Positions 2,281-34,833 of a stretch of 64,000 nucleotides of DNA are shown here, piece by piece. Position 1 is the first letter of the stretch. Every line of letters begins with the position of its first letter. Under the pieces are notes generated by a model. That model did no database searches. It saw only the letters and a list, made by a program, of their open reading frames with translations, and was not told the origin of the DNA. The DNA lies in the NCBI GenBank assembly GCA_023415335.1, contig JAEZLD010000048.1:1-64000 (forward strand). The letters are read 5' to 3'. The position numbers were made by a program, and so were the translations under genes. This stretch comes from Bacillota bacterium. GTDB taxonomy: Bacteria > Bacillota > Clostridia > Clostridiales > Caloramatoraceae.

Positions 2281-2579
2281 ATTCTAAAACCTCCTGGGGT
2301 TAATAATCGATTTACAGCTATCCCTATTCATAAGGCGGCTGAAGCCTTGAGCATATGGATCAAAGGGCGGGAAGCAGATCTGGCCTTCATCTCCTCTATG
2401 CGGTATCCGGTCCCGGACAAAGCCTTATGCCCAGTGCTCCGGGTCCGTCACGCATCCAAAGGATGCATGACGGGTCCCATTGCCAGATAGCTGTATTCTG
2501 TTTGCTTACTTACATCTTTTTAGATGCAGTTTCTCGCCGTTTTTACGGCGCTTACCATACCACTGGCCACACGCTTTAA

Positions 2580-2640
2580 GACGTAGGGTAGGATTCGAAC
2601 CTACCATATAAGGGGAGCTCATCCCCGTCGTTTACACGAC
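2580..2640 (-). other. tRNA-Tyr(GTA) 3'-half remnant (anticodon loop to 3' end), an att-like scar
   Basis: The minus strand reads gtcgTGTAAAcgac-GGGGAtgagcTCCCC (long variable arm) - GGTAGGTTCGAATCCTACC (T-arm) - CTACGTC (acceptor 3' strand). No matching 5' acceptor or D-arm lies upstream, so it is a fragment and not a gene. Confidence 0.5.
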
Positions 2641-2768
2641 TGCCACGTGCAAGTGACACTTGGCATGCACTTTGGGATTCCCTGGTGCACCGCAGTGAAA
2701 GCTTATCAGACACCCGCTTAAGTGACCTTGCAAGTATAGAATACAAAAAAACATTCCTCTTATCACGG

Positions 2769-2801
2769 AAAAAAAGCTGCGAACTCATCACAGCTCACAG
2801 C
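2769..2801 (-). terminator. Rho-independent terminator of the WYL-pair operon (stop codon sits in the loop)
   Basis: The minus strand reads GCTGTGAGC-tgtgatga-GTTCGCAGC followed by TTTTTTT. Confidence 0.5.
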
Positions 2802-18580: not shown

Positions 18581-19608
18581 TTATTCCAAGCTGCAAACCG
18601 CTTCCCGAAGCATTCCCGCATATTCCGCCTTCACATGCTGGGGACCTTTAATCTTTACCTTTCCACCAAAACCAAACACCCAACTATAAAAGATGTGACT
18701 TACTGCAATATCTACAACGGCTCTAAATGAGTTCATGTCGTTTGCGTATGTAGTAACATCCTCGCCAAGCCGGTCAATAATGGAATCCATAACACTGTTG
18801 TCGCATATCAATTCAACTTCTTCATGCTCGCTGTTAAACATTAGGAATGTTATATAATGTATTCCTCAATATCAAATCCCTCTGGGGCAGGAGTTCCGTC
18901 TTCTTTCAAGATAACCGGACACTTAGCAATTAGGTCTACTCTAAAGCACCCAAGACGCTGTTTATTTTCGTAAACACCAATCATATAATAACAAGCACCA
19001 TTCCACACAAGATGAAGGGGCGTAATTGTGTACGGCTCACCATTGTGTTTCAATTTTTTCTCTTTTCATACATTGTATTGAAAATACTGTAAGGAGATTT
19101 TCTTGTTCGCGTTGATTGCATCGTTAATGGCATCAACAATAATGTAGATTCTTTCATTTCCAACCTTAATGCGGCCTTCACAGCTTACATTCCTTTTAAG
19201 ACTAGCAGCAGCATAAGATCCAGCCATAGAACTAAGTTTCTCAGCCAGTTCTTTGCTTTTGCTTGAATTTATGAATTTTGACGATTCAACAGCGTCAATC
19301 AATAATTTTAACTCTGGAATATCAAATTTTCGTCCAAATAGATTGTATCTATTCTGCGTAGATTTAACCTCTTCGATTTCAAACCCCAACTGCCTGAGCA
19401 GTTCAATCTCAGCTTTGATTGTTTGACGATGTGATCTGATTCCATATTTCTCCCCTAAAATTCGAATCAGCTGAGCAGTTGTAAGAAAATGCTCTTCGTC
19501 TATTTGCTCACATAAAATTTTTGCCAAGTACAACGGCCTTAATTTTGCGTTGTTATCCATTTGCCCACCTTCAATACAGATAAACATTTTACAGGTTGTA
19601 TCTGACAC
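18581..19608 (-). pseudogene. HTH-WYL-WCX transcriptional regulator (BrxR/CapW/PafBC-like), disrupted by an in-frame TGA and a frameshift
   Basis: It is split into three ORFs. The first is the HTH part 19608-19066. The second is the WYL part 19053-18850, with 'ITPLHLVWNGACYYMIGVYENKQRLGCFRVDLI'. The third is the WCX-like C-terminus 18841-18581, with 'FGFGGKVKIKGPQHVKAEY'. ORF1 and ORF2 are in the same frame across a TGA. ORF2 and ORF3 are in different frames. Confidence 0.65.
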
Positions 19609-19828: not shown

Positions 19829-20890
19829 TTATGCGTTGATTAATTCAGAGAAATCTCTGCAATTTTGAACATTTGAGACCTGAATTTCCACATTCAATCC
19901 CCCAGAGGATCGCAAAAACACCTGCCCATATAAGCATATTGGAAGCTGTCTGTTGTTGCTGTAACGGCGATCTGGCGTTCCGTTCTTATTAACAAACTGC
20001 CATGTATGTCCTACAACTTGAGCATCCTTCGGAACTCCTTCACTTTCAACAAATCTAACTTCAGAAGTTTGGACTCTAAAATCACTATAATCAATCATTC
20101 CCACTTTGCTTCCGCGTACAATGAAGACTTTATCAGGAAGAATAATCAACATTTCCTTCTTCAGTTTGATCTGTACAGTATCAATATTTGTATTGATGTA
20201 GAAGGGACGCCCTTTTTCGATTTGGCAAGGAATACGATTTAGGCTTCTCCCTGCACCAGCATGTAATTTCGTGTTCGAATTAAACTGCTCAGAAGTAATC
20301 TGCCACTCTTTTTTTCCTTCAGCCAGTAATTGCCATGCGCCAATTCTTCTGTCATGCTCATCTTTTGCTTCTGCATCAAAGGAATATTCCAATTCAACAC
20401 GGCCCGACTTGTGAGCCATGACCTTTAGAACAATACCAAGAACCAAAAGCAAGAAAAACACCGGCTGCGCAAATCCTAATAGAGAAAGCCAGATCAGCGC
20501 CGTACTCCATTTATTGAGTTTAATTGTTTTTTCTATAGTTTGAGAAATATTACCAGTCTCTGCAGCCTTAAATTGCTCAATACTTGCGCTTTCGATCGGA
20601 ATTTCTGCCTCATAATTGCTTGAAGGGTTGTAGTTTCCGGGATTGTAATTATTTCCTGAAGAGTTACCGTATCCTTGTGATCCGCCTCTTCTCCTTGAAT
20701 TTCGCTTTCCGGATTCATCAACATAAGATATTCCTGTTCCCGGAATAGAATATGTTCTTCTTGTTTTTCCGCTTGCTGTTTTTGTAATACGGTATCCTTT
20801 GGTACCCCAACTATATCCAATACCTGATTTGCTGAGATTGATCCTAAATCCCCCTCCAAGATTTATACTTTTTCTATATCTAAAGCCCAT
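19829..20890 (-). CDS. DUF4236-type N-terminal domain + single TM + C-terminal domain of unknown function
   Basis: The N-terminus 'MGFRYRKSINLGGGFRINLSKSGIGYSWGTKGYRI' matches the DUF4236 pattern. It is followed by a Gly/Asn/Tyr-rich linker and a hydrophobic helix 'LIWLSLLGFAQPVFFLLLVLGIVL'. Confidence 0.6.
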   Translation of the reverse strand: MGFRYRKSINLGGGFRINLSKSGIGYSWGTKGYRITKTASGKTRRTYSIPGTGISYVDESGKRNSRRRGGSQGYGNSSGNNYNPGNYNPSSNYEAEIPIESASIEQFKAAETGNISQTIEKTIKLNKWSTALIWLSLLGFAQPVFFLLLVLGIVLKVMAHKSGRVELEYSFDAEAKDEHDRRIGAWQLLAEGKKEWQITSEQFNSNTKLHAGAGRSLNRIPCQIEKGRPFYINTNIDTVQIKLKKEMLIILPDKVFIVRGSKVGMIDYSDFRVQTSEVRFVESEGVPKDAQVVGHTWQFVNKNGTPDRRYSNNRQLPICLYGQVFLRSSGGLNVEIQVSNVQNCRDFSELINA

Positions 20891-21625
20891 TCAAATAACC
20901 TCCTCAACTTCAATAAACACTACGCTAAGATCATCGTTTGAACCGTTTTTTAGGGCTTCTTCTATTATCTTATTGCACTTTTCTGTTGCTGCCATGTTTT
21001 GGATTAATGTGGCTTCCAGAAAATCAAGAGAAACATACTCATGAACACCATCTGAGGTGAGCAGATATTTTTTCCCTTTTGTAATAGATGAAACAGAGAT
21101 CTTTGCGGCGTAGTTTTCATTACCTCCACCTAAGCAACTAGTAATCTCATTCTTGTTACATAGTTCAGCTTCCTCATATCGTTGCATGCTACAAAGGTAG
21201 TTATAAACCGTATGATCCGATGTCAGCTGTTTTAAGTAATCGCCTTGCAACACATAAGCCCTGGTATTTCCCACATGAATAAGTTGATATTTCGTTTTGA
21301 AAAACAGGATCCCTGTTAGCGTCGTAGCCATATCCGAAAACTTGGGCTCCTGCTTTGCCTTTTCTAAAAGTGCAGTATTAATATCTAGGATCTCCGAACG
21401 AATATCAATACTCATGTCTATTGCAAGATCCCTTAAGGCATTTACAACAAAGTTTGATGCAACGGCACCACCGGCATTACCCCCAACACCGTCTGCAACA
21501 CAAACGATTCCACTTTGAACAGTGTCCAAAACCTGGCAACTATCCACAACAACATCTTTCCCAACAAGAACCGCGTCTTCGCTGGCTAATTTGTTTTTCC
21601 CAGCCTTTGTAACTACGCAGATCAT
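20891..21625 (-). CDS. PP2C-family Ser/Thr protein phosphatase
   Basis: It has the motifs 'VADGVGGNAGG', 'TSDGV' and 'NGSNDDLSVV'. Confidence 0.85.
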   Translation of the reverse strand: MICVVTKAGKNKLASEDAVLVGKDVVVDSCQVLDTVQSGIVCVADGVGGNAGGAVASNFVVNALRDLAIDMSIDIRSEILDINTALLEKAKQEPKFSDMATTLTGILFFKTKYQLIHVGNTRAYVLQGDYLKQLTSDHTVYNYLCSMQRYEEAELCNKNEITSCLGGGNENYAAKISVSSITKGKKYLLTSDGVHEYVSLDFLEATLIQNMAATEKCNKIIEEALKNGSNDDLSVVFIEVEEVI

Positions 21626-23517
21626 TAAATCGCCTCTTTAGTGCAGGTTAAAGCATACGGCATATTTTCAGCATCTATATCTTCAATCCTGATTCTGGCA
21701 TCGCCTTTCACGCCATGGTCAAACATATATCTTGCCAAAGGATTGATGAGTAAGCTTTCAACAAAGTTTCCGATTCCTCGACCACCGTTTGCAAGATTGC
21801 CCAACGCCTTTTCTTCCAAAATCTTCATAGCCTTTTCCGACAAAGTCAGCTCAATGTGTTTCTCTGTAACCAGGTTCCTAATAAGCTTATTAACCTGTGC
21901 CTCAAGGATAATCTTTGCTACAGGAGGACGAATGAAGTCAAAGACCACAATGTTTTCACCAATTCTATTCAGAATCTCAGGGCGTCCCAGCTCAAGTTTG
22001 AAATAATCCTCAATAGCCTGTCTTACGCGAGTTTGGACTTCTGAATATTCCATCTCCGCTGTAACATTGGGTTCTCTTACGCCAAGATTATTTCTTGTGT
22101 AAATTCCAAGGTTGCTAGTGAAGATTATGATACATTCAGAAAAATAAACCGTATTACCCTGGCCGTCCGTCATTCTACCATCTTCCAAGATTTGCAGGAA
22201 TTTATCGAAGATAGACGGATGTGCCTTCTCAATTTCATCAAACAGGAGGATAGAGAAAGGATTTTCCTTAACTGCGTTTGTTAGCTGGCCTCCTGCTTCA
22301 TATCCAACATATCCTGGAGGCGCTCCCAGCAATTTTTGGTCGCTGTGACTCTGGCTGTATTCACTCATATCAAATCGAATACAGCAGCTCTCGTCTCCAA
22401 ACAGTTTCTCGGCCAGCGTCTTTGCGGTTTCCGTTTTACCAGTACCAGTCGGTCCTGCAAAGAAAAGAATTCCCTTGGGCTTGGCGTGGGAAGAGCTCTG
22501 TAATCCAGCCATGCCGGTAACAGCTCGTTTTACAACATCCAGTGTTTTTATGATAGCAAAATCCTGACCTTTTACGCGCTTTTGGAAATCTGCGTGAGCT
22601 GTCTTTAATTCATTCTCATCAAGGGCATCCCAAGGATTCTCTTTAATTCCATAACGGTATAAATCAATTACCGATGCCATCTGTCTAATTCTGGTCTTTT
22701 CATTTTTACAAAGTCTTCTTAGCCCATTGATCTCAGTAAAGCTAAACCCTTCAGTAAGGCCTACAAATTTATCTTGAATCTTATCAAGTTCTTCCGGATG
22801 TTCTTGATAATAAGGAAAATCTTCATCATATACATCTGCAGCGAAAAAGCTCATGAAATTTTCTCCTTTAATGAGCCGTTCGCGTTCTTCTTTGGAAGGG
22901 GTTCCAAGGCTTATGGTCTTCACATTGGGATTATCCAAATAGAACCAAGCAGGAATATCGTTGACCTTATTAACGATCATTACAACAATATTTTTTAATG
23001 TCCCGTTTTCTGTACGGACATCCTTTCCTTCCATAGAAGATAGGATTAAGTTTGTGAAACTATCTACTTCAGATTGTTCTATTCCATCGGGAGTCGTAAT
23101 GTATCTTGAAGCAAGATTCATAACAATTGCAGTAGACTGTTTATTTTGATTTACAGCAGTTCTAATTATAGAAGTTGCTGAATTACTCTTTCCCTTAAAA
23201 TCACATCTTATGTATTTACCTTCAAGTTTTGCGTTTGCAATCTCAGCAAAAGACTCAACATGACCTTCCTCACAAGAATTATAAAATCCCTGCATGCTGT
23301 CAAAAAAGACAATCGATTGATATCCAAGGTCCTTAAAATAATAGTGCAGGTACTCAGGCAAGCGCAAAATGCTGCCTTTAGAAATGCTTCCCTCTGTAGG
23401 GTATTGATACACATCGAGAACATTGCCTTCGAGAATAATCAAGGGTTTGATTCTGCTAAAAATACCCAGTTCTCTGTGCCATTTTGGAATATATTCTTCC
23501 ATTTTCCTGCCTCCCAC
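21625..23517 (-). CDS. AAA+ ATPase with a ClpA/ClpB D2-like C-terminal module and a divergent ~330-aa N-terminal region
   Basis: It has Walker A 'GPTGTGKTETAKTLA', 'LLFDEIEKAH' and the sensor region 'IIIFTSNLG'. The N-terminal half is unrecognised. Confidence 0.8.
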   Translation of the reverse strand: MGGRKMEEYIPKWHRELGIFSRIKPLIILEGNVLDVYQYPTEGSISKGSILRLPEYLHYYFKDLGYQSIVFFDSMQGFYNSCEEGHVESFAEIANAKLEGKYIRCDFKGKSNSATSIIRTAVNQNKQSTAIVMNLASRYITTPDGIEQSEVDSFTNLILSSMEGKDVRTENGTLKNIVVMIVNKVNDIPAWFYLDNPNVKTISLGTPSKEERERLIKGENFMSFFAADVYDEDFPYYQEHPEELDKIQDKFVGLTEGFSFTEINGLRRLCKNEKTRIRQMASVIDLYRYGIKENPWDALDENELKTAHADFQKRVKGQDFAIIKTLDVVKRAVTGMAGLQSSSHAKPKGILFFAGPTGTGKTETAKTLAEKLFGDESCCIRFDMSEYSQSHSDQKLLGAPPGYVGYEAGGQLTNAVKENPFSILLFDEIEKAHPSIFDKFLQILEDGRMTDGQGNTVYFSECIIIFTSNLGIYTRNNLGVREPNVTAEMEYSEVQTRVRQAIEDYFKLELGRPEILNRIGENIVVFDFIRPPVAKIILEAQVNKLIRNLVTEKHIELTLSEKAMKILEEKALGNLANGGRGIGNFVESLLINPLARYMFDHGVKGDARIRIEDIDAENMPYALTCTKEAI

Positions 23518-23593
23518 TCTTTGTTCTACACGCTATTGATTACTGTTGATTTTTTCTTGAAATATAGTATAACCTTAATCTGGGCAATTCATT

Positions 23594-24175
23594 TTACCCA
23601 CGATATGGGGTAAAGCCTGGCTTATGTATCCCCACAGAAACAATACCGTCTGTCGTCGTAAAATTTTGAATTCTGTTCCCATTTTCCCGTAAATACCAAT
23701 CATACAATCCGCGGTATTTCTCTTTTAAGATGTGAATCCTTTGATTGGTAGATCCACGCAAAACCAGACCAGCATTCTTTTCTTCAATATATGGTCCATC
23801 AACAAGAACTGCAATATAAGGCAGAATATCATTTGCTAGTGAGTTTGTTGCTGTGAATTCCTCGCGGGTATATCCAGTATAGACTAAAATGTCCTCAGAA
23901 ATATCATGAAGTTTCTTTAATAAATCAAGCAATTCTGATGCTTGATCCAGTGGTTCACCGCCAGAAATAGTAAATCCATCAATTGTATGGTCTGTAGCGA
24001 GTCTCTTAATCAGTTCTAAAAGCCTATCAACTGATATCTCATATTCTTCTTTCTGATTCCACAACTCCGGATTACTACAACCTTTGCAGGCGCGTTTACA
24101 ACCACAGAGCCATATACCAACTCTATTACCAGGACCCAAAACTTTTACGGGATACAATATTCTTGCTACATTCAT
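23594..24175 (-). CDS. Anaerobic ribonucleotide reductase-activating protein (NrdG)-like radical-SAM activase, orphan
   Basis: The match to NrdG runs along its whole length: 'KVLGPGNRVGIWLCGCKRACKGCSNPELW' (CxxxCxxC), 'ISGGEPL', 'VYTGYT', 'VLVDGPYIEEKNAGLVLRGSTNQRI'. No glycyl-radical enzyme is nearby. Confidence 0.85.
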   Translation of the reverse strand: MNVARILYPVKVLGPGNRVGIWLCGCKRACKGCSNPELWNQKEEYEISVDRLLELIKRLATDHTIDGFTISGGEPLDQASELLDLLKKLHDISEDILVYTGYTREEFTATNSLANDILPYIAVLVDGPYIEEKNAGLVLRGSTNQRIHILKEKYRGLYDWYLRENGNRIQNFTTTDGIVSVGIHKPGFTPYRG

Positions 24176-24783
24176 CTGTCCACCTTGAAAGTCAAATAAG
24201 CAGCAAGTTCTTGTCTCTCGCCATTAATCACTTTGCCACCAAGGCCAATCTCATCGCCTTCTTGCAATGCGGTCGGTACATCATTGTCAATGGGCTTATC
24301 GTTTACAAATGTTCTGTTTGTGGCACTCAGGTTTTCAATAAAAACCTTTCCAGCAACTATCGTCAATTTTGCGTGCTGACGACTAACATATGAACGCTGT
24401 TTCAAATAGTCCTTCAATTCGGCTTCCCGGCCTATAATCACAACTGGCGTATCAAAAGATTGAGAAAAATCACCACTAATTGAATCTAAAGAATATGAAA
24501 ACTTCTTCTCTTCATGTTTCGTAGGCCGAATATCTGAAATATCCTCTCCACATGTTTTACATTTTCGAGCTTGTGGAGGATTAATCGCACCACATTCACA
24601 AACTCTCGCCAAAGTTCCTTGCGATGCTGGTGGTTCTGTGGGAAGTTCCTTTTGAGCCTCTTCAAGAGCAGCATCCACAATACGAACTCCTGTTAGATCA
24701 CATTCACACTTTCGACACTCTAGCAAAACAGGCAGGTTGTTCTCACCACAGGAAGGGCAAACTTTATATTTCTCCAAAGCCAT
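24172..24783 (-). CDS. Double zinc-ribbon + FHA domain protein
   Basis: It has CPSCG...CRKCEC and CECG...CKTC ribbons. The C-terminal FHA region shows 'VIIGREAE...SRQHAKLTIVAGKVFIENLSATNRTFVND'. Confidence 0.8.
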   Translation of the reverse strand: MALEKYKVCPSCGENNLPVLLECRKCECDLTGVRIVDAALEEAQKELPTEPPASQGTLARVCECGAINPPQARKCKTCGEDISDIRPTKHEEKKFSYSLDSISGDFSQSFDTPVVIIGREAELKDYLKQRSYVSRQHAKLTIVAGKVFIENLSATNRTFVNDKPIDNDVPTALQEGDEIGLGGKVINGERQELAAYLTFKVDR

Positions 24784-26150
24784 TACTCATTCTCCCTTCG
24801 CATTGTTTTTGTGGCAGAACGCTTTTTCCTTCTTCTCGTTGCCATTTCAGTAATTTGTTTACTACTGTGAATTTGATAATCGTTTACATTAATGATTGCT
24901 GCATATTCTGCAGCAGGAGGCGACATTTCAATACGCGTTCCCACAATGACGCCCTTTTCCTTTAGTCTTCTTTCAATCTCTGCAAACTCACCGCAAAAGG
25001 TTTCCATATCTTCCGTTAATTCTCCCACCTCTTCTTCATTGGGGAGCCGGTCTTCATGAGCTATGCCACCAAGTTCCATTGCTATTTGACCATCCGAAGA
25101 AAAGGTGACATTGACGGCAGTACCTTCATCAAAAGAATACAATTCATTTCTAAATTTCTTTCCGCTTTTCTTCTTTACTTCGCGGGAACCCAACAGTTCA
25201 TATCCCATTTCGGAAAGAACCTCTTCCACACAATCACTGATATATTCCTGTTCGCGCTGTTTGACCGCTAACAACTCTATCCTTTCAACTTCTTTTTCTA
25301 TTGTTTCAATCTCTGCAGATCTAAACAAATCAACATTGGACTGGACTCCGGTCAATTGACAAAGCACCTCATATCTATCAAGGAGATCTTTACGCAACTT
25401 TTCTTCTTCTTTTTTCTGCTCCTTGATAAGAGAACTTTTCGCTTCGAGAGCTCTAATAGTTAAACTAGAGAAGGTATGTAGATAATCTATGGACACAATA
25501 CGCCCAAGCGAATTCATTGCCTCCCCAATCTCTTCTTTCAAAGAATTAGGACATTCTTTATCAAGAAACATTGCCTTCAACTTTGCTTCCAGCTCAGTTC
25601 GCTCCGTCTCCAAAGCATCCACTTCAACTGGAGCGCTGAAGTCCAAATAAACATATGCTGCAAGGTCCTCCGCTATACTATCTTGTGCCGTATTTTCAAG
25701 TTTTTCCACAACAACAGTAGCTTGCTGGATTGGTTTCTCTATCTCTTTTTGTAGAGCTTCAACATTCTGCTTAATCTTCCTGATCGCAGCAAGCTGTTGT
25801 TTTTTCTCAGCAAGAGCTTCCTCGCTAATTTGATATTTTTCACTCAAATGAGGTCGATGAGATTGAAGATCCATAAGCAATTCGGTTGACTCCTTCTCTA
25901 TGACACCCAGCATTTCTTGCAAGGACGCCACACAGTTACCATCAACCTCACAGCGCTCATTCAAAAGTTTTAGCCGTGTGAGCAACTCCTCGATAGTTCC
26001 TCTACATCCTAATATGTATGAAACACCTAACTCAATTTGATTAGCACACGATATGCTTTGCTGTTCACAGCGCATTTGTCCGTTGACATTAGCCCGTGCC
26101 CAGCCAGATAATTCATAAACAGATATTTTAGGACCACTCATCCAAATCAC
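24783..26150 (-). CDS. Coiled-coil protein of unknown function
   Basis: It has long heptad-rich E/K/L segments and is translationally coupled on both sides. Confidence 0.55.
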   Translation of the reverse strand: MIWMSGPKISVYELSGWARANVNGQMRCEQQSISCANQIELGVSYILGCRGTIEELLTRLKLLNERCEVDGNCVASLQEMLGVIEKESTELLMDLQSHRPHLSEKYQISEEALAEKKQQLAAIRKIKQNVEALQKEIEKPIQQATVVVEKLENTAQDSIAEDLAAYVYLDFSAPVEVDALETERTELEAKLKAMFLDKECPNSLKEEIGEAMNSLGRIVSIDYLHTFSSLTIRALEAKSSLIKEQKKEEEKLRKDLLDRYEVLCQLTGVQSNVDLFRSAEIETIEKEVERIELLAVKQREQEYISDCVEEVLSEMGYELLGSREVKKKSGKKFRNELYSFDEGTAVNVTFSSDGQIAMELGGIAHEDRLPNEEEVGELTEDMETFCGEFAEIERRLKEKGVIVGTRIEMSPPAAEYAAIINVNDYQIHSSKQITEMATRRRKKRSATKTMRRENE

Positions 26151-26160
26151 CTCAACTCAA

Positions 26161-27852
26161 CTATTCATTCATCAACATTCGCCACTTATCAATTTCTTTC
26201 TTCTTGCCAATCGCAATTAGCCATGTCTCAAGCTGCACATCTAAATTGCCATCATAATCAACAAGTCTATGACATAAGGTCTCAAATTTATCGAAAGACA
26301 AATCCAAACACTCTCTCATGTATCCTGCCAGTTCGCCAACTGTACGGAACTGCTGGTTATCCAGCAGCAATAATTTTTGTCCTGACAAGGTATATGCCAT
26401 ATAATAATAGGTGCGAAGCAAATCCGAATGTTTGCCTTTCTCTAATACATAAGAATCTTCAATGGCTGCCGTAGCCTTTTTAAGAGCTTCATTCTTTGGA
26501 GACACCTGCATTACATACTGAGTTAAAAGTTTTTCATTCAAAACGCTTTCATAATACTTGTACTGAGATTTATCGTGTTTCCAAAGCTTTTCGAGAACAT
26601 CTCGGCCAAATGCGGGAAGACTTTCATACACTTCACCCTTCCAATAGAAGCCCTTCAATTTCGGGTTCAAGCGATACAGCAGTTTCCAAAAAATAATATC
26701 ATCTTTTCCATTAGAGCGGCTGGCTTCCTCTTCAGCTTCCATGCATTTTTTCGCTGCCTCTTGATCAAAAACTCGAAAATGTGCTGATAAAAGGCCTCGG
26801 AAAAGATGTTTCTTTCCTTCGTTCCAGTTCTTTGCCAGAGACGCAGCAAGCCCTTCTATGCTGGTTATTTCTTCGTTTAGGAAATGGTAAATAGGCATAT
26901 TTCCTTTGCCTACATTTCCAATTCCTTCACCAGGGATGATAAGGCTTTCACCGTTGATCCACTTTACAACCTCTTCGTATGTCCAGCGGCGATTTGGATT
27001 GTTTTTGTTTTTGCGATAACTGATATCATAATATGTCAATGCAGAAATAAAATCTTGCAAAAGCACGGGCATGCTTTCCGGAAACGGTATTCTTTGAACG
27101 GATACATATTGTTCAATCTCTTCCGGTTGCATATTTGCATATGGAGTATATCCACAAAAAAGCTCAAACAGCGTTATGCCAAAAGAGTAATAGTCAGATC
27201 CCTCATAAAAAATATTCTTAAAAGTCTCTGGTGCTGAATACTCAGGTGTCATGCCTGTTTTCGTCACAAGAAGAGTATGTTTATCATCAACAGCGGAACT
27301 GATTCCAAAATCGATAATGGACACAGTTTTACCATCATCATTTAACATAATATTAGATGGTTTAAGATCTTTGTGAATAATTCCTGCCTGATGGATCGCA
27401 TGTAGCCCCTCATTAATGTTGGGAATAATACTTTCAACCAATTCCTCATAGTTAAATGTTTTTCCTTGCAAACTTCCATTTTTGTAGTAAGGAATAATTT
27501 CTACAGGAAAACCATTATGTTTTGCTGTTTCATGAAGCTTTGCAACATAAGGTGAATTGATGCTCAGTAACGCCTTAATCACATCTTCCTTGATTGCGAA
27601 TTTCCTCTTGTAAATCTTCGCAATATACTTTTTCCCATCATTCGAGCAAATATACAAATCAGCTTCTCCAGAGGCAACCTCCAATCGTTCTTCAATTGTA
27701 TACTTGTCGCAAATTATTGTTCCGCGATCAATCAAATCCTCTTGTCTACTGATAGAGTCGATTTGATTGCCATACTGCTGGACGAGCTCTGAATTAATCG
27801 CAGTCGGTGCTGATTCTATGATATTAGGATTAATTACTGTACGATTATCCAC
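26161..27852 (-). CDS. Hanks-type Ser/Thr protein kinase with a ~270-aa C-terminal domain of unknown function
   Basis: It has 'YIAKIYK' (beta3 Lys), 'HKDLKPSNIML', 'DFGIS' and 'TPEYSAPE'. Confidence 0.85.
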   Translation of the reverse strand: MDNRTVINPNIIESAPTAINSELVQQYGNQIDSISRQEDLIDRGTIICDKYTIEERLEVASGEADLYICSNDGKKYIAKIYKRKFAIKEDVIKALLSINSPYVAKLHETAKHNGFPVEIIPYYKNGSLQGKTFNYEELVESIIPNINEGLHAIHQAGIIHKDLKPSNIMLNDDGKTVSIIDFGISSAVDDKHTLLVTKTGMTPEYSAPETFKNIFYEGSDYYSFGITLFELFCGYTPYANMQPEEIEQYVSVQRIPFPESMPVLLQDFISALTYYDISYRKNKNNPNRRWTYEEVVKWINGESLIIPGEGIGNVGKGNMPIYHFLNEEITSIEGLAASLAKNWNEGKKHLFRGLLSAHFRVFDQEAAKKCMEAEEEASRSNGKDDIIFWKLLYRLNPKLKGFYWKGEVYESLPAFGRDVLEKLWKHDKSQYKYYESVLNEKLLTQYVMQVSPKNEALKKATAAIEDSYVLEKGKHSDLLRTYYYMAYTLSGQKLLLLDNQQFRTVGELAGYMRECLDLSFDKFETLCHRLVDYDGNLDVQLETWLIAIGKKKEIDKWRMLMNE

Positions 27853-27854
27853 CT

Positions 27855-30800
27855 TTAAACACCTCCAACCACAGTAACCTTATCGTCGATTACATTAATT
27901 TTCTCATTTGCAATCAGTTTTTCAAGAGCTCTTGCCATTGCTACATTGATTTTCTCACCGCGTCTTGAATATCCAATTGCCCTTGTTGTTTCTTCAATGA
28001 GTGCTTTTGTGCTAAGTCCAAATGTGTTAGAAGCAACAGCTATCATAGCAAGCCCCAATTCATCTGTAGAAATAAGGTTAATCGCTCTTTGATTGTATCC
28101 ATCCTCAGGAATACGCACTTTGAGATTATCAAAACCTTTAAGGGTGACAAAATCATCTTTAATCTCCAGCCGTTGTCTGCCCGCTGTGGTATTCATTGCC
28201 ATATCAACCATGCGACGCACCAGACTCGTTACCTTTTGATTACCAAAAGCACCCGCCATTCTCTGGTACAACAAATCCTTATGTATCGGCTGCTCAATAC
28301 CGACAATATAAACTATCCTTGTTAATACTTCGGTCATATTGTCGTATGTGTTTGGCATTGGTGCATCCCACCAATTGGCCTCCACATAGCGTTCAAATCC
28401 ATACGGATTATCCTCGTCGCAATTAATGCCACCACGGTTTTGTGTACCTTTATAAGATTCCTCCGTAACTTCTTCAACCATACTAGACAAATCTTCTTGC
28501 AATAATTTCTTCTGCTCAGGTTCTTCAATTTTAACAGCAGTATGTTCGGATGCATCCTGTATAAACGAGAGGAGTTTAGCTCCTTCCACCTCGGGATTAA
28601 TATACCACTCTGCAGACCATACTCTGTACATATTCCAACCCATGGAATTCAGCACAGATCTTCTCAGATGATCTCTATCTCGTGCTGTATGAGCAGAAAC
28701 ATAAGAGTAACCATCACACTCAATACCTGCAATATATTTGTCTTCATCGTTACGATCCACAACGGCAATATCAATACGATAACCAGAACAACCAACATAC
28801 TTTTTGATAGTATATCCATTCTTTTCTACAAATTCCCCAACCATATCGACAAAGCGATCCTGCCCTTGTACATTTCTAGACGAGGCTAACGCAACTGCGC
28901 CATTCATAGCAAACTCAATGTACGAGCGTAACATTCTGATGCCTTCTGATTCTGTTCTGGAAAGATCAATATCGGAAGGAAGAATAGAACTAATAAGCTT
29001 TATGTTTCGCTTTGCTCTAGTAATCGCAACATTTAGTCTTCGCTCACCGCCTTGGTGTCCAAGAGGGCCAAATCGCATGTGCATCGGGCGCCCAGATTCC
29101 TTTTGATCCTTTGTTTGCGCATAACAAATACTAAAGAAAATCGTGTCGCGTTCATCGCCCTGAACATTTTCCAGATTCTTTACAAAGAACTCTTCTTCAT
29201 TACCTTCCTTGAAGAAGAATTCATATTCCGGATTTTGCTCTCTAAACCGCTGCACTTCCAAAGAAATCTGTTGCTGTTGCTTTTCGCTGAAGGCAATGAT
29301 TCCCAGGGATCTGTCCGGATGCTTATCAATATGCTTCTTGATTAATTCAACACACCGCTTAGCCTCTGCAACATTACAGTTTCTACCGCCGCCTTCATAA
29401 TATCCATCTTCAACATATTCGAACTCAACACCACAATCCTCTTCGTGTTCCACGCTACTTGGGAAAGTGACCAATTCATTCTTGTATATCTCTTGATTAG
29501 AAAAGGCAATGAGATGCTCGTGCTTGCTTCTATAATGCCAAAGCAATGTACGATTTGGCAGCACACTTGCGGTTTCTTCCAGAATAGAATCGTAAACAAT
29601 ATCTTCGTATTCATCATCAGAATCAAAAGCGTCGGAATCATTGCTTGTACTCGTAGCAAAGAAATTTGTAGGAGGCAACTGTTTTGTATCACCAGCAATG
29701 ATAACCTGCTTTCCTCTGAAAATAGCACCAATTGCATCTTGTGGGAATATCTGTGAAGCCTCATCAAAAATAACCATATCAAATTGGTAGGAGTCTGCTT
29801 CAAGGAAATAAGCCACAGACAAAGGGGACATCATCAAACATGGTTTTAATGTCAGCAACAAATTGGGAATTGATCTAAAGAGCATTCTCAAAGGCATAAT
29901 GCGACGCTTTTTTCCCATTTCTCTTTGAAGCACCTGCAACTCATCTTTTGCTGTTGTGACTCTGTTGGTATCAGGAAATCTGCTAATTATTTTCTCGCGG
30001 ATTCTCATCTGTGCAACAGATAGCTGCTTAGTATCCAATTCCACAAAGCGTTCCAGCTTCGCCTCTTGAGTTCTTCTACGGAAACTTTGGACAGCCGGAG
30101 ATTTATCCATTGCCATAGTAATCCAGAGTTTATAAAACTGTTTTTCAAAACAAGCCTTAATTTCACTTGCCGGAACTACACCTTCGGAAATCAAATCAAC
30201 ATATTTCTTTAGTCCTGCATTAACACACTCAGCAGTTGTTTCTCGATAATCAATCCACTGGTCCAAAGAATTGACATTGCTTCGGCAAGCAGAAACTTTC
30301 TCATTGATTCTTGCAATTTCACTTTGTTGCAAGGAAGCTCCATATTCAAACAACGAAGCAAAGTAGCTAATAGGCTCTTCTACTGGAGCAAGAAGAAGTC
30401 TTATATCTGTAGTTGCAGCTTCCAGATTGTTTCTTTCCGCTTCACTATTACAGTATGTACGGATAAATCCGGGCGCAGCAATGCTGAAGCTGTTGTTTTC
30501 AAACAAAGAATTCACAGCTTCAATATCATCAATTAGTTCTGCCCACTTAGTGTCAATTCCAGCATAGCGCTCTCCAAACAAAAACACTAAGCTGTCTTCA
30601 TTTTGTGCCAGTGACAGTCTATAGTTTCTTGCACTATTAGCCGTATTAATGTTTTCAACAAGCTCTGCCATTGCATCTTCGCAGGTGGCAAATCTCCGTA
30701 TATATTCAACGGAAGAATTCAGTCCATTAGTATGCTTGCTCAAGAACAGAATCCTCTGTAGTATTTCGTCATTCGTAGTTGCAAAAACAGGATCCTTAAA

Positions 30801-33800
30801 GTCTGAGGAAATATTATTGAGTTTAACAGAAAGTGAATCTAGCCTTTCCTCTAAAAGTACACTTACAGCAGATGCAATCTGTTCTAATTGGTCAGAATGA
30901 ACATCCTTATTGCTTAAGATATTAATAAGAACTTCGGGCACTCCAGTTTCTCCAAAGCAATTCTTCAACTTTCGGACCATATCAAAGGCATCTAACAAGC
31001 TTTGCCACGGGGTATCCACATCATCATAACGTGAACCCAAAACCACATCAAAACGATGCTTATTTTCTTCAAACCATAGCTGTTCTGCTTTGAATGCCTT
31101 GATTTGCTGTAGCAGGGAAATAATCATTGCATCATTGATTTTTCCACCGATTGTTCTGCAAACAGCTCGAATAGTTTTAATGTCCTCTTTGTATGCTGCT
31201 TTGAATATCTTAAAGAAATTCACATACTCTGTTTTGAAACGCAACAGCATTCCGTCAACATCGATTTTGAAGACATCTTCTTCCCATTGATCCAAAATAG
31301 CTTTTTTGATACCCAGGTATGTTTGTGCATGGGACTGTCCTTGGGTAATCAATTTTTTAGCCTCGGCTGCTATCTCGTCATTAAACCATTCACGCTTAAC
31401 GGTATTTGTGTTAAGCACAGCCCTGGCAACAGCTCCTGTCTCTTTGATTGCATTGAAGTTTTCACCAAAATTGATACCTAACATAGATTTTATACATACA
31501 TAAGCGTTATACACTTCATTCCATTCTTGTTCAAGTGAATTTGCGTATACTTTAAGCTGGCTAATGCCTCCAATAATGTCTGCTTCGGAAGACTTTTTAT
31601 AGTTACCGCACTTTCTGATGTTGTCTAGTGATTCTCGGACAGAATCTATCCAAGCCTGTAAATCTTCATCCAAAATACTCTCCACAAACAAAGCTTTCAC
31701 TTTGTCAAGGCATGCCAAATACTGCTGCTGTTTTTCTTTTTCTTCTACAGCAACAGTGCGAAGTTTATGACGCCGCTGGACCTGTGCCCATTCCTCAGGG
31801 AACAACGGAGCGACAACAAACATTTCCAAAAACTCCGCCATCTTTTTGGCCCCACTAAGGGTACGTTCTCCAGACAGGCCGAGACGGGCATGAATTTCAT
31901 GTAGAGTGTCATTAAGCTTTGCAAGCTGGTCTTCGAGCAAGTGGGTTTTTTGTATAAAACTGTTTTTTAAGCTTTGACTTGCTTGGGTAATTGTTGTTCC
32001 GTTCCACGGATGTTCTTCTAGCTTCATTCCCAGCGCTAAAAGAGCTTTTTCCATATTTGCAACACAATACATCATGGCATTATATTGGGAAGAAGTCACA
32101 GAATGAATATCGTCAATTTCAAACTGGATTTCCGGAACAGAATCCAAAATAGAATATTTACCAAAGGCGGTATATAAGCTTTCTCCCAATGGTTCAATTT
32201 CACTGTGGAGCTCTTCTGCATATGCATTAAGATGTTTGCGATCATGGAAAAGTTCATCCAGCTCTATAACAACAGAATCCTTAACTCTCTGGTGCGGAAG
32301 TTTTAGGTTGGCTCCAATGTTTTCCAGAATATCTTTTTTGTTTGCTTTGTGGCTATGGAGAGCTAAGCAGAAATCCTCCAGTTGCACTTCAGTTAATCTC
32401 TTCAAAACAACTTGAAGGGCGGCGGCCTTTTCAGAAACAAACAAGATTTTCTTTCCATCAGCCAATCCTTCGGCAATAATATTAGTAATTGTCTGACTCT
32501 TGCCTGTACCAGGAGGGCCTTGCATAACGAAGCTAACCCCCATCTTAGATAGTAAAATTGCTTCTTGCTGACTTGAGTCTGCGTTAACCACTTGATACCA
32601 ATCGCGGGGTGAAACATCATCAAAGGCAAAATTCTGATATGATGCAGGAATTTGATTTGCTGAAGATACATCTCCCGCGATAGCCCTCAAAGTAGGACTA
32701 CTCATCATTCGGGCACGGTGATTGTTGAGATCATGGTACATGCTGATCTTCAAAAAGGACAACAAACCCATGCTCACTTCACGGATAATTTTCCATCCTC
32801 GCTTGTCAACAATCTCTTCAATCTGCTGCAAATATTGCTGGATTGATGACTCATCCTTCAACTCAAATGTAGGCAAATCTAAACCATACTGCTCGTTGAA
32901 CAAATAGTCCAGCGTAGGATTTACCTCAATTTCGTCATCATACCGACTCAGTGTGTACGGAGAGTGTATGGATTCTAATCCAAGTGTTACCGGCATCATC
33001 AGTAATGGAGATTTGAGCCATGGAGAAGAATCCTTGCTATTTTCTTTCCACTCGACAAAACCAAATGATATGTACAAAATGTTTGTACCTTGTTCATCCT
33101 TGGCTAACTTAGCTTTATTTCTTATATTGCGTAGTGTTCTTTGCCTTTCGACAATAGAGCCTTCCGTTTTAATGTCTCCAACATGAACAGGGAGAGGATA
33201 AGACAATGTTTCCAGCAACGAAAGAACAGAAAATGTTCTTAAATCCGAATCCTTATCAATCGGTCTTTGGAATGTAAGTTCCTCTTCACCAATAGCCAAT
33301 CTGTTAAACAGTTCAGAAAAACCCGGTTCAATAATCCGCAAAGTGGAAAGTTTTGTCTCTCGATAATTAATCATTCGATTGCGCTTACCAAGATCCAATA
33401 GCTGATGCTTCCAAAAATCAATTCGTTTATCTAATGTTTCCAGATCATCTGCTCTAACATGGATACCATCCATTGCATCAGGAAGTTTTTTTCCATCAAA
33501 AGCATTTTCAACATGCTCAACACTTGCTTCTCCCCTCTGAGTTGACTCCACCGTTGACGTTATTGTTTCAACTGGAGAATCATTTCTTACCACTCGTCCC
33601 TCTGGAGCAAAGTTTTCTGTTTTGCCTGCTTCGACAGCAGCCTGCTGCGTCTGAGTAGTAGACGCAGGAACTGGAGTAGATTCAACAGCTCGAACCGGAA
33701 CCTGGTTTTGTTGTGCTCTCACTTCGTTTATCCTCTTTGCACTCAAATAATTCTCTTTGGCAGCATCGTTGTAAGATGCTGGGTTGGATGAATACCGGCT

Positions 33801-34013
33801 GAACGCTGATACCCATTGTGTATTCCCCAAAGTAGAGCAACGCGTAAAAGCGTTGTTGCAAACAGGACAAGTATGAGGTTTTGCCAAATTTATATAACTG
33901 TTATTAGAAAATCCATTAGCAATAATTTGTCTACTTATTCTTGCACAAATAGGGCAAATGACCGTAGGAACTCTTGAACCGTTTGAACAATTTAAGATGA
34001 TTAAATCCACCAT
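27855..34013 (-). CDS. Giant (2052 aa) zinc-ribbon + DUF4011 + SF1 (Upf1/DNA2-like) helicase + DUF3320 + DUF559/Vsr-like PD-(D/E)xK nuclease protein (Hhe-like)
   Basis: It has Walker A 'VMQGPPGTGKSQTITNII' and motif II 'VIFDEASQ...GDTKQLPP'. The C-terminal nuclease region shows 'YRIDIAVVDRNDEDKYIAGIECDGYSYVSAHTARDRDH'. The N-terminus carries CPIC...CPVC ribbons. Confidence 0.85.
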   Translation of the reverse strand: MVDLIILNCSNGSRVPTVICPICARISRQIIANGFSNNSYINLAKPHTCPVCNNAFTRCSTLGNTQWVSAFSRYSSNPASYNDAAKENYLSAKRINEVRAQQNQVPVRAVESTPVPASTTQTQQAAVEAGKTENFAPEGRVVRNDSPVETITSTVESTQRGEASVEHVENAFDGKKLPDAMDGIHVRADDLETLDKRIDFWKHQLLDLGKRNRMINYRETKLSTLRIIEPGFSELFNRLAIGEEELTFQRPIDKDSDLRTFSVLSLLETLSYPLPVHVGDIKTEGSIVERQRTLRNIRNKAKLAKDEQGTNILYISFGFVEWKENSKDSSPWLKSPLLMMPVTLGLESIHSPYTLSRYDDEIEVNPTLDYLFNEQYGLDLPTFELKDESSIQQYLQQIEEIVDKRGWKIIREVSMGLLSFLKISMYHDLNNHRARMMSSPTLRAIAGDVSSANQIPASYQNFAFDDVSPRDWYQVVNADSSQQEAILLSKMGVSFVMQGPPGTGKSQTITNIIAEGLADGKKILFVSEKAAALQVVLKRLTEVQLEDFCLALHSHKANKKDILENIGANLKLPHQRVKDSVVIELDELFHDRKHLNAYAEELHSEIEPLGESLYTAFGKYSILDSVPEIQFEIDDIHSVTSSQYNAMMYCVANMEKALLALGMKLEEHPWNGTTITQASQSLKNSFIQKTHLLEDQLAKLNDTLHEIHARLGLSGERTLSGAKKMAEFLEMFVVAPLFPEEWAQVQRRHKLRTVAVEEKEKQQQYLACLDKVKALFVESILDEDLQAWIDSVRESLDNIRKCGNYKKSSEADIIGGISQLKVYANSLEQEWNEVYNAYVCIKSMLGINFGENFNAIKETGAVARAVLNTNTVKREWFNDEIAAEAKKLITQGQSHAQTYLGIKKAILDQWEEDVFKIDVDGMLLRFKTEYVNFFKIFKAAYKEDIKTIRAVCRTIGGKINDAMIISLLQQIKAFKAEQLWFEENKHRFDVVLGSRYDDVDTPWQSLLDAFDMVRKLKNCFGETGVPEVLINILSNKDVHSDQLEQIASAVSVLLEERLDSLSVKLNNISSDFKDPVFATTNDEILQRILFLSKHTNGLNSSVEYIRRFATCEDAMAELVENINTANSARNYRLSLAQNEDSLVFLFGERYAGIDTKWAELIDDIEAVNSLFENNSFSIAAPGFIRTYCNSEAERNNLEAATTDIRLLLAPVEEPISYFASLFEYGASLQQSEIARINEKVSACRSNVNSLDQWIDYRETTAECVNAGLKKYVDLISEGVVPASEIKACFEKQFYKLWITMAMDKSPAVQSFRRRTQEAKLERFVELDTKQLSVAQMRIREKIISRFPDTNRVTTAKDELQVLQREMGKKRRIMPLRMLFRSIPNLLLTLKPCLMMSPLSVAYFLEADSYQFDMVIFDEASQIFPQDAIGAIFRGKQVIIAGDTKQLPPTNFFATSTSNDSDAFDSDDEYEDIVYDSILEETASVLPNRTLLWHYRSKHEHLIAFSNQEIYKNELVTFPSSVEHEEDCGVEFEYVEDGYYEGGGRNCNVAEAKRCVELIKKHIDKHPDRSLGIIAFSEKQQQQISLEVQRFREQNPEYEFFFKEGNEEEFFVKNLENVQGDERDTIFFSICYAQTKDQKESGRPMHMRFGPLGHQGGERRLNVAITRAKRNIKLISSILPSDIDLSRTESEGIRMLRSYIEFAMNGAVALASSRNVQGQDRFVDMVGEFVEKNGYTIKKYVGCSGYRIDIAVVDRNDEDKYIAGIECDGYSYVSAHTARDRDHLRRSVLNSMGWNMYRVWSAEWYINPEVEGAKLLSFIQDASEHTAVKIEEPEQKKLLQEDLSSMVEEVTEESYKGTQNRGGINCDEDNPYGFERYVEANWWDAPMPNTYDNMTEVLTRIVYIVGIEQPIHKDLLYQRMAGAFGNQKVTSLVRRMVDMAMNTTAGRQRLEIKDDFVTLKGFDNLKVRIPEDGYNQRAINLISTDELGLAMIAVASNTFGLSTKALIEETTRAIGYSRRGEKINVAMARALEKLIANEKINVIDDKVTVVGGV

Positions 34014-34070: not shown

Positions 34071-34277
34071 CTAATCGTTCTCTATGACTTCCATCAAGTC
34101 TCCTAGGTCACAATGAAAAATCTTACAAAGGCGAAGCATGACTTCCATTGAAACGACGCGGTCTTGATTAAGTTTTGTCATAGTATATTGCGAAAGTTCA
34201 GCCGCCTTCGCAAGTTCACTTTTTTTCATTTTGTTAGTTATCATAATAGTCCACAGTTTATCATATCTAACTATCAT
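34071..34277 (-). CDS. XRE-family HTH transcriptional regulator (68 aa; internal Met start preferred)
   Basis: 'MITNKMKKSELAKAAELSQYTMTKLNQDRVVSMEVMLRLCKIF' is a Cro/CI-type HTH. An AGGAGG lies upstream of the ATG at 34277. Confidence 0.7.
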   Translation of the reverse strand: MIVRYDKLWTIMITNKMKKSELAKAAELSQYTMTKLNQDRVVSMEVMLRLCKIFHCDLGDLMEVIEND

Positions 34278-34332
34278 GCTCTTCCTCCTATATGTAAAAT
34301 TTAATCTACTTTCAGCTAGATACAAAAATACA

Positions 34333-34347
34333 TGATATAGTATATCA
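34333..34347. promoter_or_regulatory. Perfect palindrome TGATATA-G-TATATCA in the XRE promoter region (candidate operator)
   Basis: It is a 7-bp inverted repeat ~55 nt upstream of the XRE start. Confidence 0.35.
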
Positions 34348-34623
34348 CAGTTCTCGTAAAGCTTCAATGTATTTTATCGAACTAACAAGAATTACACTAG
34401 AATGTGTCGATTTAAATCATCACCTAAAGTGAAAACATCCCACACCAGGCCGCGAAAACCCAGTGCGGGGTGCAAGGTCTTAATATGCCGGGATACCGTA
34501 TCCCAGGATCTCATAATGTCCGACCCCATAGCTGCGCTGTGCACAGGAATCGCCGGAGTCGCCCTCAGCGGTGTAAACTCAACAGTTATCGATAGTTTTA
34601 GCTTCAGTACAAAATAAAAATAG

Positions 34624-34662
34624 GCAAAAAAATAGAACCCCATGAGTTCTCGACTCATAGGG
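34624..34662 (-). terminator. Rho-independent terminator downstream of lysS
   Basis: The minus strand reads CCCTATGAGT-cgaga-ACTCATGGGG followed by TTCTATTTTTTT. Confidence 0.5.
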
Positions 34663-34833
34663 CTCTCACTGCATTTAGTTTTCATTTAGTGCAAGCGATT
34701 GCGATTTGCATGTTTTTGTCGTGAATACCGGCGACAAAATGGAGAGGTTTGGAGAAAAAATTGGATAGTCACCACACCATATCGCAAAATCAATCGCAAT
34801 AAACCGTTATAAGGGGACCTGCAGGGACTTAAT

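Follow-up and report, generated by a model that had tools for sequence, protein, structure and literature searches.

What does a complete set of eukaryotic-like phospho-signaling genes do beside an AAA+ machine and a giant helicase-nuclease in an anaerobic bacterium? The question is raised by positions 20891 to 27852 of a 64,000-nt window (the whole stretch of DNA analyzed here, from contig JAEZLD010000048.1 of a Bacillota bacterium), for which a first-pass annotation had proposed that the regulatory set of type VI secretion systems (T6SS) had been repurposed to gate the adjacent helicase-nuclease or the AAA+ protein. The six genes of this interval, all on the minus strand, are internal to an operon of eight genes that begins at 34013 and ends at 19829. 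Judging from sequence comparison, and with a confidence slightly better than even, we read this operon as a horizontally mobile anti-phage (conflict) system of anaerobes that is switched by phosphorylation. The kinase, FHA protein, PP2C phosphatase and AAA+ protein that the annotation named are encoded together as it said, and between them lie two genes that it overlooked, for an NrdG-like radical-SAM enzyme and a coiled-coil protein.

The operon encodes, in order, a DUF4011 helicase-nuclease, a Hanks-type kinase, a coiled-coil protein beginning with MSGPK, a zinc-ribbon FHA protein, the NrdG-like radical-SAM enzyme, the AAA+ protein, the PP2C phosphatase and a DUF4236 protein (Table 1). Read 5′ to 3′, the helicase-nuclease stop and the kinase start are 2 nt apart and the next gap is 10 nt. 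The FHA gene overlaps the coiled-coil stop by 1 nt and the radical-SAM start by 4 nt, a spacing of ~76-91 nt precedes the AAA+ gene, the AAA+ stop and the PP2C start share 1 nt, and the last pair abuts. Such tight spacing of eight genes implies co-transcription and translational coupling. The larger open reading frames (ORFs) of the window were scanned against Pfam, and the cassette proteins were compared with Pfam, NCBIfam and PADLOC.

Table 1. Genes of the operon, in order of transcription, and the regulator gene directly upstream (positions in the window)
Feature	Position	Strand	Length	Supporting matches
Helicase-nuclease	27855..34013	(-)	2052 aa	Pfam DUF4011 2.1e-32, MTES_1575 7.4e-30, AAA_11/AAA_12
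Hanks-type Ser/Thr kinase	26161..27852	(-)	563 aa	Pfam Pkinase E=7.9e-31, 107.8 bits vs cut-off 31.7
MSGPK coiled-coil protein	24783..26141	(-)	452 aa	356 homologues; AlphaFold2 model
FHA protein, two N-terminal Cys4 zinc ribbons and C-terminal FHA	24172..24783	(-)	203 aa	FHA E=5.3e-14, DZR weak
NrdG-like radical-SAM enzyme, glycyl-radical-activase type	23594..24175	(-)	193 aa	Pfam Fer4_12 8.5e-32
Two-tier AAA+ protein	21625..23517	(-)	~625 aa	Pfam AAA_2 E=7e-49, 166.5 bits; ClpB_D2-small
PP2C/PPM Ser/Thr phosphatase	20891..21625	(-)	244 aa	Pfam PP2C_2 2.9e-10
DUF4236 protein, last gene of the operon	19829..20890	(-)	353 aa	Pfam DUF4236 6.5e-22
XRE/Cro-type helix-turn-helix (HTH) protein, directly upstream of the operon	34071..34367	(-)		Pfam HTH_26 E=1.4e-17

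The kinase, the FHA protein and the PP2C phosphatase make up, by their conserved residues, a complete set of writer, reader and eraser that is probably active. The kinase domain (residues ~50-285), which is followed by a C-terminal domain of unassigned fold, keeps the catalytic motifs that the first-pass annotation had recognized, namely YIAK (K79), HKDLKPSN (H160, D162, N167), DFG (181-183) and APE (207-209), and also the αC glutamate E90, all conserved in 32 orthologues. A hydropathy scan revealed no transmembrane-like segment, and Pfam gave no extra domain and no PASTA. Two defense kinases are among the matches of this protein: PD-T4-6 in PADLOC, and mad6, with 120.5 bits in PADLOC and 72.8 bits in NCBIfam (cut-off 460). 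The FHA protein carries both Cys4 ribbons ascribed to it, with the motifs CPSC..CRKC and CEC..CKTC. Its FHA domain (52.8 bits, Pfam cut-off 20.7) contains the residues that bind phosphothreonine (pThr), G118-R119, S134-R135-Q-H137 and N156-R-T158, and the protein is thus predicted to be the pThr reader. In an alignment of 19 family members, ribbon 1 is invariant, and the GR, SRxH and NxT residues are kept in class A, the class of loci described below. The phosphatase aligns best in the PDB to PstP of M. tuberculosis (E=3.5e-23) and scores 135.6 bits against NCBIfam Stp1, under the cut-off of 230. Its metal-binding aspartates, kept as the annotation had it, are D17, D45 (DGVGG), D192 (SDG) and D231/D232; they are conserved in 27 orthologues, and their motifs align to D38, D191 and D229 of PstP, with the last motif (NDD, 230-232) being moderately conserved. 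Since catalytic and ligand-binding residues across the cassette are conserved in ~27-35 orthologues, the enzymes are under selection and not relics.

The AAA+ protein, whose start is likely the ATG at 23502, had been called ClpV-like, a name that proves too specific. Residues 304-623 correspond to a ClpB-type D2 (PDB ClpB D2, 5.9e-61), in which the whole family keeps Walker A and B, the GYVGY pore loop and the Arg finger. Residues 1-300 are modeled by AlphaFold2 as an AAA+ fold without Walker A (predicted local distance difference test score, pLDDT, 91), and Foldseek matches this part to Rpt, p97, NSF and ORC (E ~3e-5 to 4e-4, TM 0.3-0.5). There is no Clp N-domain or M-domain, and Clp proteins align to D2 only. 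As modeled, therefore, the protein would be a two-tier Clp/Hsp100-like motor with a dead D1 and a live D2. Because no conserved ClpP-docking loop was found in the family alignment, it probably remodels its substrates rather than feeding a protease. The N-domain family comprises 525 clusters at 50% identity, with most full-length members at ~600-680 aa, and the AAA+ core matches PADLOC PDC-M37B and DolB.

Radical-SAM and AAA+ genes are immediate neighbors in all variants examined but one: in Geminocystis, a Fer4_12 gene is found ~9 kb from the AAA+ gene. NrdG-type enzymes abstract hydrogen from protein glycine. The cassette enzyme scores close to these activases (118.3 bits against NCBIfam NrdG TIGR02491, cut-off 126.1; 2.1e-34 against the phage NrdG family phrog_626) and shares with them the CxxxCxxC motif, here C26-x3-C30-x2-C33, and GGEP, both conserved in 35 orthologues. 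It differs from them in a ~40-aa C-terminal extension and in being paired with an AAA+ protein, and it has no sequence match in the PDB. Neither NrdD nor any other glycyl-radical enzyme is encoded in the operon. Mimicry of the Zn ribbon and Gly loop of NrdD by the zinc ribbons of the FHA protein was considered and rejected, as these ribbons are not followed by an invariant Gly.

The first gene of the operon encodes an N-terminal zinc ribbon, DUF4011, a split Upf1-like superfamily 1 (SF1) helicase, an MTES_1575 (Vsr-like) nuclease and DUF3320. In 23 orthologues, Walker A (K505), DEASQ (1417-1421), motif VI and the nuclease residues are conserved; the N-terminal 200 aa and a ~700-aa insert (residues 600-1300) are hypervariable. 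The protein matches PADLOC PDC-S37 (hidden Markov model PDLC05009) with E=0 and 1400.6 bits, on a profile of 1550 positions (against 2052 residues) that has no curated PADLOC cut-off. It also scores 1303.4 bits against NCBIfam ProA (NF058533), in three stretches of which the best covers profile positions 996-1903, 881.6 bits against NCBIfam Hhe (NF042953) and 562 bits against PADLOC Hhe. On these scores it is a close relative of ProA, not an equivalog. We take the protein for a putative DNA-directed effector or sensor of the Hhe/ProA/PDC-S37 type. A single PADLOC MkoA profile matches both the cassette kinase and the helicase, which implies that natural kinase-helicase fusions exist.

The coiled-coil protein has no match in Pfam, PADLOC or NCBIfam. 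Its gene probably starts at ATG 26141 rather than GTG 26150, and the product combines an invariant N-terminal MSGPK, a hypervariable helical region of ~300 residues and a conserved C-terminal α/β domain. The AlphaFold2 model (pLDDT 83) places helices at 16-314 and the α/β domain at 318-425; a fold search with it was uninformative. The MSGPK start is present in every class A, B and D locus examined (L001-L041, L045, L047), from gut Clostridia to Rhizobium plasmids, and the gene is the fastest-evolving of the cassette, at 28-47% identity compared with 59-85% for the AAA+ gene. The DUF4236 protein has a hydrophobic transmembrane region (128-158) and a C-terminal domain of unassigned function. For about half of the class A loci that are complete, its gene was detected after PP2C, and DUF4236 genes also adjoin the Aristaeella and Caballeronia versions of the system. 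The full-length match of the protein to phrog_17982 (4.3e-77) indicates that this architecture also occurs in (pro)phages.

How general is the arrangement? Class A loci were collected by neighborhood look-ups and by scanning 185,579 species representatives with the coiled-coil alignment, and the window proteins were compared with them by tblastn. The cassette is present in 30 of these representatives, as well as on metagenome contigs (Segatella, ENA) and on an Aristaeella lactis plasmid. The seven-gene order from helicase to PP2C is kept in at least 16 other loci, with others cut by contig ends, and since the same order recurs so often the association of the genes is not due to chance. The hosts are mostly gut and rumen Clostridia, with Bacteroidaceae/Segatella, Desulfosporosinus, Erysipelotrichaceae and Abditibacteriota also represented. 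Identity to the remaining window proteins is 38-74% for the kinase, 51-66% for the radical-SAM enzyme, 35-64% for the FHA protein, 34-50% for PP2C and ~38-54% for the helicase. The AAA+ protein recurs in more than 120 database clusters at ≥82% identity, one of them named Segatella copri. Horizontal transfer is suggested by contigs classified as Bacteroidota (L001/L002, L018) whose AAA+ genes are 81-85% identical to that of the window. The loci are usually bordered by defense genes: flanking ORFs match McrBC, GmrSD, type I restriction-modification, LmuA, Avs1a, SduA and a DRT-associated MBL, among others. Among 2.9 million viral contigs and 50,697 phage records, none carries the cassette. Decayed copies occur in which helicase, kinase and coiled-coil genes are followed directly by malic enzyme. 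Together, the defense flanks, the absence from phage and viral contigs and the decayed copies are the signature of an accessory, mobile conflict system.

Some class A cassettes carry additional genes. In Segatella (L001 13707-20577) and Blautia (L007 16573-20710), a NADAR protein and an MkoA-like SF1 helicase of 1067 aa are added, and the Segatella locus also has a NucA-type endonuclease and GmrSD; none of these four is found in the window.

Three further classes show which parts of the cassette travel together. Class D loci, from gut metagenomes (L036-L039), keep the coiled-coil, FHA, radical-SAM, AAA+ and PP2C genes, with a much larger kinase in L036 and L038. Class B, on plasmids and chromids of Rhizobium and Caballeronia, consists, in this order, of AAA+, radical SAM and a ~2086-aa fusion of an N-terminal Pkinase domain with DUF4011, SF1 helicase and MTES_1575, followed by a protein starting with MSGPK. 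Class C, on plasmids of Moellerella, Photobacterium and Acinetobacter, has, again in this order, an MkoA-like SF1 helicase, a PIN-domain protein, a 371-381-aa coiled-coil protein, AAA+ and radical SAM. Homology of the coiled-coil proteins could be shown for classes A and D (C-terminal domain), is suggestive for class B (hhalign P=0.01 together with the MSGPK, LGYE and FCG[ED]F motifs) and was not shown for gammaproteobacterial class C. The AAA+ and radical-SAM genes are thus the most deeply conserved part, usually accompanied by an MSGPK-type coiled-coil protein and by an SF1 helicase plus nuclease. The kinase is frequent across the variants, either separate or fused to the helicase-nuclease, and kinase, FHA and PP2C look like a regulatory layer placed upon a helicase-nuclease/AAA+/radical-SAM system.

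Several observations on these relatives stand apart. In class D, a second, larger radical-SAM gene lies beside ORFs of 38-43 aa (L036 3142-5550 and L038 1390-2852); the arrangement resembles a peptide-maturation cassette and could represent a peptide effector. On the Acinetobacter plasmid pNDM1_010055 (L046 1155-13127), the class C system is followed by another pair of a small AAA ATPase and a radical-SAM gene. A core DUF4011 and radical SAM pair flanking hotspot cDHS1 of P. aeruginosa (PMC10250203) may be a chromosomal relative.

How could such a system work? In the reading that we prefer, an infection cue would be sensed through the hypervariable coiled-coil protein or the helicase insert and would activate the Hanks kinase. 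As a result, pThr marks would arise in its activation loop or on a partner; the FHA adaptor would bind them and could then recruit or license the AAA+ unfoldase, with a logic like that of Fha1/ClpV in T6SS or of phospho-arginine and ClpC in Bacillus. The motor would remodel the complex so that the helicase-nuclease is released onto DNA, and might also hand a polypeptide to the radical-SAM enzyme. PP2C would erase the marks, thus setting a threshold and preventing self-damage. That the phospho-set gates its neighbors, as the first-pass annotation suggested, is a reasonable reading given the fixed gene order, the overlapping or abutting ORFs and the kinase::DUF4011-helicase-nuclease fusion; the co-inheritance of the set with the AAA+ protein and the helicase-nuclease is observed, and the gating itself is our interpretation.

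A number of points weigh against this reading. The defense function is one that we infer from homology and context alone. The helicase-nuclease stays under the curated equivalog cut-offs of ProA (1500) and Hhe (2000). Class D lacks the DUF4011 helicase, so effectors other than the helicase-nuclease are possible. FHA and PP2C occur in Firmicute-type versions alone, not in the proteobacterial variants, so the core can do without the phospho-switch. A regular-expression scan for the glycyl-radical motifs that a substrate of the radical-SAM enzyme might carry ([STIV]xR[IVT][CSA]GY; RVxG[YF]) found none in any cassette protein. Most loci are metagenome-assembled, and the taxonomic assignment of their contigs can therefore be wrong. 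Finally, promoter and terminator scans gave no excess over shuffled expectation.

Some of the same evidence could be wired differently. If the helicase-nuclease were the DNA sensor and the kinase, adjacent or fused, the transducer, then AAA+/radical-SAM/coiled-coil, or mass phosphorylation as by Stk2, would be the effector of abortive infection. We regard this reverse order as doubtful yet plausible enough to be kept in view. It would account for the AAA+ and radical-SAM genes being the deepest conserved part, for class D systems without the nuclease, for the kinase fused to the helicase N terminus in class B, and for the matches of the kinase to PD-T4-6 and mad6. Against it, the nuclease motifs of the cassette helicase are conserved, and Hhe-type proteins, which carry their own nuclease, reportedly act as single-gene systems (Gao and colleagues, 2020); an AAA+/radical-SAM pair is also not known to be toxic. 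Alternatively, two independent systems may lie side by side in a defense island, with an Hhe/PDC-S37-type helicase-nuclease acting alone and kinase/FHA/PP2C/AAA+/radical-SAM forming the other. In favor of this, PDC-S37 and Hhe are catalogued as single-gene systems, defense genes commonly cluster, and the six-gene set of class D exists without the helicase. However, the helicase and kinase genes follow each other in fixed order, separated by just 2 nt in the window, and do so in at least 16 loci; in Rhizobium and Caballeronia the kinase::DUF4011 helicase-nuclease fusion adjoins AAA+ and radical SAM; and the gammaproteobacterial variants again pair these two with an SF1 helicase and a PIN nuclease. 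We consider two separate systems unlikely.

It is very unlikely, in our judgment, that the operon has nothing to do with immunity and serves the radical maturation of proteins or peptides, or stress and quality control, with a kinase-regulated unfoldase feeding a radical-SAM modifier and the helicase being incidental. The action of NrdG-type enzymes on protein glycines, the RiPP-like (ribosomally synthesized and post-translationally modified peptide) appearance of the second class D radical-SAM gene with its small ORFs, and a weak NCBIfam match of the kinase to lanthionine-synthetase kinases would fit such a role. Patchy and rare distribution, signs of inter-phylum transfer, defense-island and plasmid contexts, the persistent link to a helicase and nuclease, and decayed copies are hallmarks of conflict systems, not of housekeeping. 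Least credible of all is the capture and repurposing of the T6SS threonine-phosphorylation pathway (PpkA/PppA/Fha1/ClpV) that the first-pass annotation had in mind, which we hold to be extremely improbable, although the same four component types occur together and TagH, ClpV and PppA are among the weaker matches. With every T6SS-specific model the score is far under the cut-off and poorer than with generic relatives: TagH/Fha1 (TIGR03354, cut-off 120.25) gives the FHA protein 31.6 bits, and the best match of this protein is mycobacterial FhaB, also far under cut-off; the AAA+ protein scores 208.9 bits against ClpV/TssH (TIGR03345, cut-off 884.95) and higher, 259.7, against ClpB; and PP2C matches T6SS PppA at 1.8e-10, compared with the E value given above for PstP. 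Furthermore, the kinase has no transmembrane segment or periplasmic domain, the AAA+ protein belongs to its own family with a dead D1, and, in a spore-forming Firmicute context, the larger ORFs of the window include no T6SS structural gene by Pfam, as the annotation had rightly remarked. The resemblance is thus one of component types alone.

A more radical proposal concerns the conserved core. The pseudo-D1/ClpB-D2 AAA+ protein, the NrdG-like enzyme and the MSGPK coiled-coil protein could form an unrecognized immune engine that uses protein-radical chemistry, mostly in anaerobes, with kinase/FHA/PP2C as a lineage-specific trigger; we think this decidedly unlikely. The activase-type enzyme would then abstract hydrogen from a polypeptide chain in passage through the unfoldase, or from the invariant SG at the N terminus of the coiled-coil protein, and the outcome would be that the helicase-nuclease complex is armed or a target is destroyed. 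Should the radical-SAM step indeed have a protein as its target, bacterial immunity would gain a type of chemistry new to it. The engine as such may also be something new.

If the operon is a defense system, as we favor, it would place an Hhe/ProA-type helicase-nuclease under reversible Thr phosphorylation by a complete writer, reader and eraser set, and would couple it to a Clp-like unfoldase and a glycyl-radical-activase-like enzyme, a pair that we have not found described together in immunity. It would also define a wider, testable family, AAA+ with radical SAM and usually an MSGPK coiled-coil protein, ranging from human-gut Clostridia and Segatella to Rhizobium, Acinetobacter (plasmid pNDM1_010055) and Moellerella plasmids.

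The operon sits in a ~16-kb block between lysS and an ABC-transporter/two-component cluster. The window flanks contain mfd, an arc operon, spoIIE, tilS, ftsH, coaX, dus, lysS and the ABC transporter, a typical origin-proximal stretch of a spore-forming Firmicute, as which the host is recognized by spoIIE and the gene order. As in many defense loci, the island is flanked by XRE and WYL-type regulator genes. The upstream XRE protein, homologues of which also precede the cassette in L010, L025, L027 and L028, is a possible regulator of the operon by virtue of its position; gene callers give a shorter, 68-aa version on identical contigs. Defense loci are often controlled by WYL regulators. The one directly downstream (18581-19608, minus strand), with an HTH N terminus, a WYL segment and a WCX C terminus, is broken into three frames and is either a pseudogene or the product of assembly errors. 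No integrase or tRNA was found at the island edges, and the base composition of the island is not deviant. An island-free strain was sought by the exact LysS sequence, which recovered only contigs with the same island.

Between lysS and the XRE gene lies a 97-aa ORF (34392-34685), which is probably not a gene because related loci have no homologue of it; within it, on the minus strand, are two strong terminator-like hairpins (34666-34634 and 34469-34439). Elsewhere in the window, an SPFH/Band-7 protein, a 303-aa protein and a 413-aa WYL-domain protein, all on the minus strand at 1177-4937, may form a second accessory block, of which a 519-aa ORF without Pfam match (7358-8917, minus strand) may also be part.

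How does the cassette relate to systems already described? The eight-gene combination, the AAA+/NrdG-like pairing and the MSGPK protein are undescribed among the names in PADLOC v2, NCBIfam and Pfam, and likewise in a literature search that did not extend to all journals. That search also returned no DUF4011 with kinase and FHA, no PDC-S37, no ProA as an anti-phage helicase and no link of Fer4_12 enzymes to defense. PADLOC has no model specific to the AAA+ N-domain, the radical-SAM enzyme or the coiled-coil protein. For MADS, PD-T4-6, Stk2, Mokosh, Dodola and PDC-M37B, the likeness is limited to the generic catalytic cores of kinase, helicase and AAA+ proteins, and no other component of MADS (including its methyltransferase), Mokosh or Dodola is encoded in the operon. 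Hhe, ProA and PDC-S37 share the full architecture of the first gene, from DUF4011 through the split Upf1-like helicase and the MTES_1575/Vsr-like nuclease to DUF3320; however, they are catalogued as single genes, whereas their relative here heads an eight-gene operon and is co-inherited with a kinase, an AAA+ protein and a radical-SAM enzyme.

With the T6SS pathway, the cassette has in common a writer, a reader, an eraser and a Clp/Hsp100-family ATPase, and likely the same logic, in which a phospho-FHA scaffold controls an AAA+ machine. It lacks a specific sequence relationship, T6SS genes, a membrane-spanning kinase, a live D1 and the ClpV N-domain. To judge by these sequence features the analogy is useful for mechanism, not for ancestry, and kinase/FHA/PP2C/Clp sets can presumably assemble independently of type VI secretion. 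A second parallel is the phospho-arginine tagging by McsB, ClpC and YwlE in Bacillus (Trentini and colleagues, 2016). Here too a kinase marks proteins, a Clp-type unfoldase acts on them and a phosphatase reverses the mark. In the cassette, in contrast, pThr would be read by a separate FHA adaptor, whereas phospho-arginine is read by the ClpC N-domain, and the AAA+ protein has no conserved ClpP-docking loop.

Kinase/phosphatase switches are already known in defense. The TerY-P triad consists of the vWA protein TerY, a PP2C and a Ser/Thr kinase with a Zn ribbon or OB fold, and is attached to CoCoNuT systems of type II and III-A, which have the Upf1-like helicase CnuH and the coiled-coil protein CnuA; in some CoCoNuT subtypes the triad is dispensable (PMC10542128). 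No cassette protein matches vWA/TerY in Pfam, PADLOC or NCBIfam. The third member is instead an FHA protein, which rather than the kinase carries the zinc ribbons; the motor is a Clp-type AAA+ protein and not a McrB GTPase, and a radical-SAM enzyme is present. In both, however, a kinase/PP2C switch is added to an Upf1-like SF1 helicase, nuclease(s), a coiled-coil protein and an NTPase motor, and the switch can be dispensed with, as FHA and PP2C are in the cassette family. By this analogy, TerY-P would be a nearer conceptual relative of the phospho-set than the T6SS pathway.

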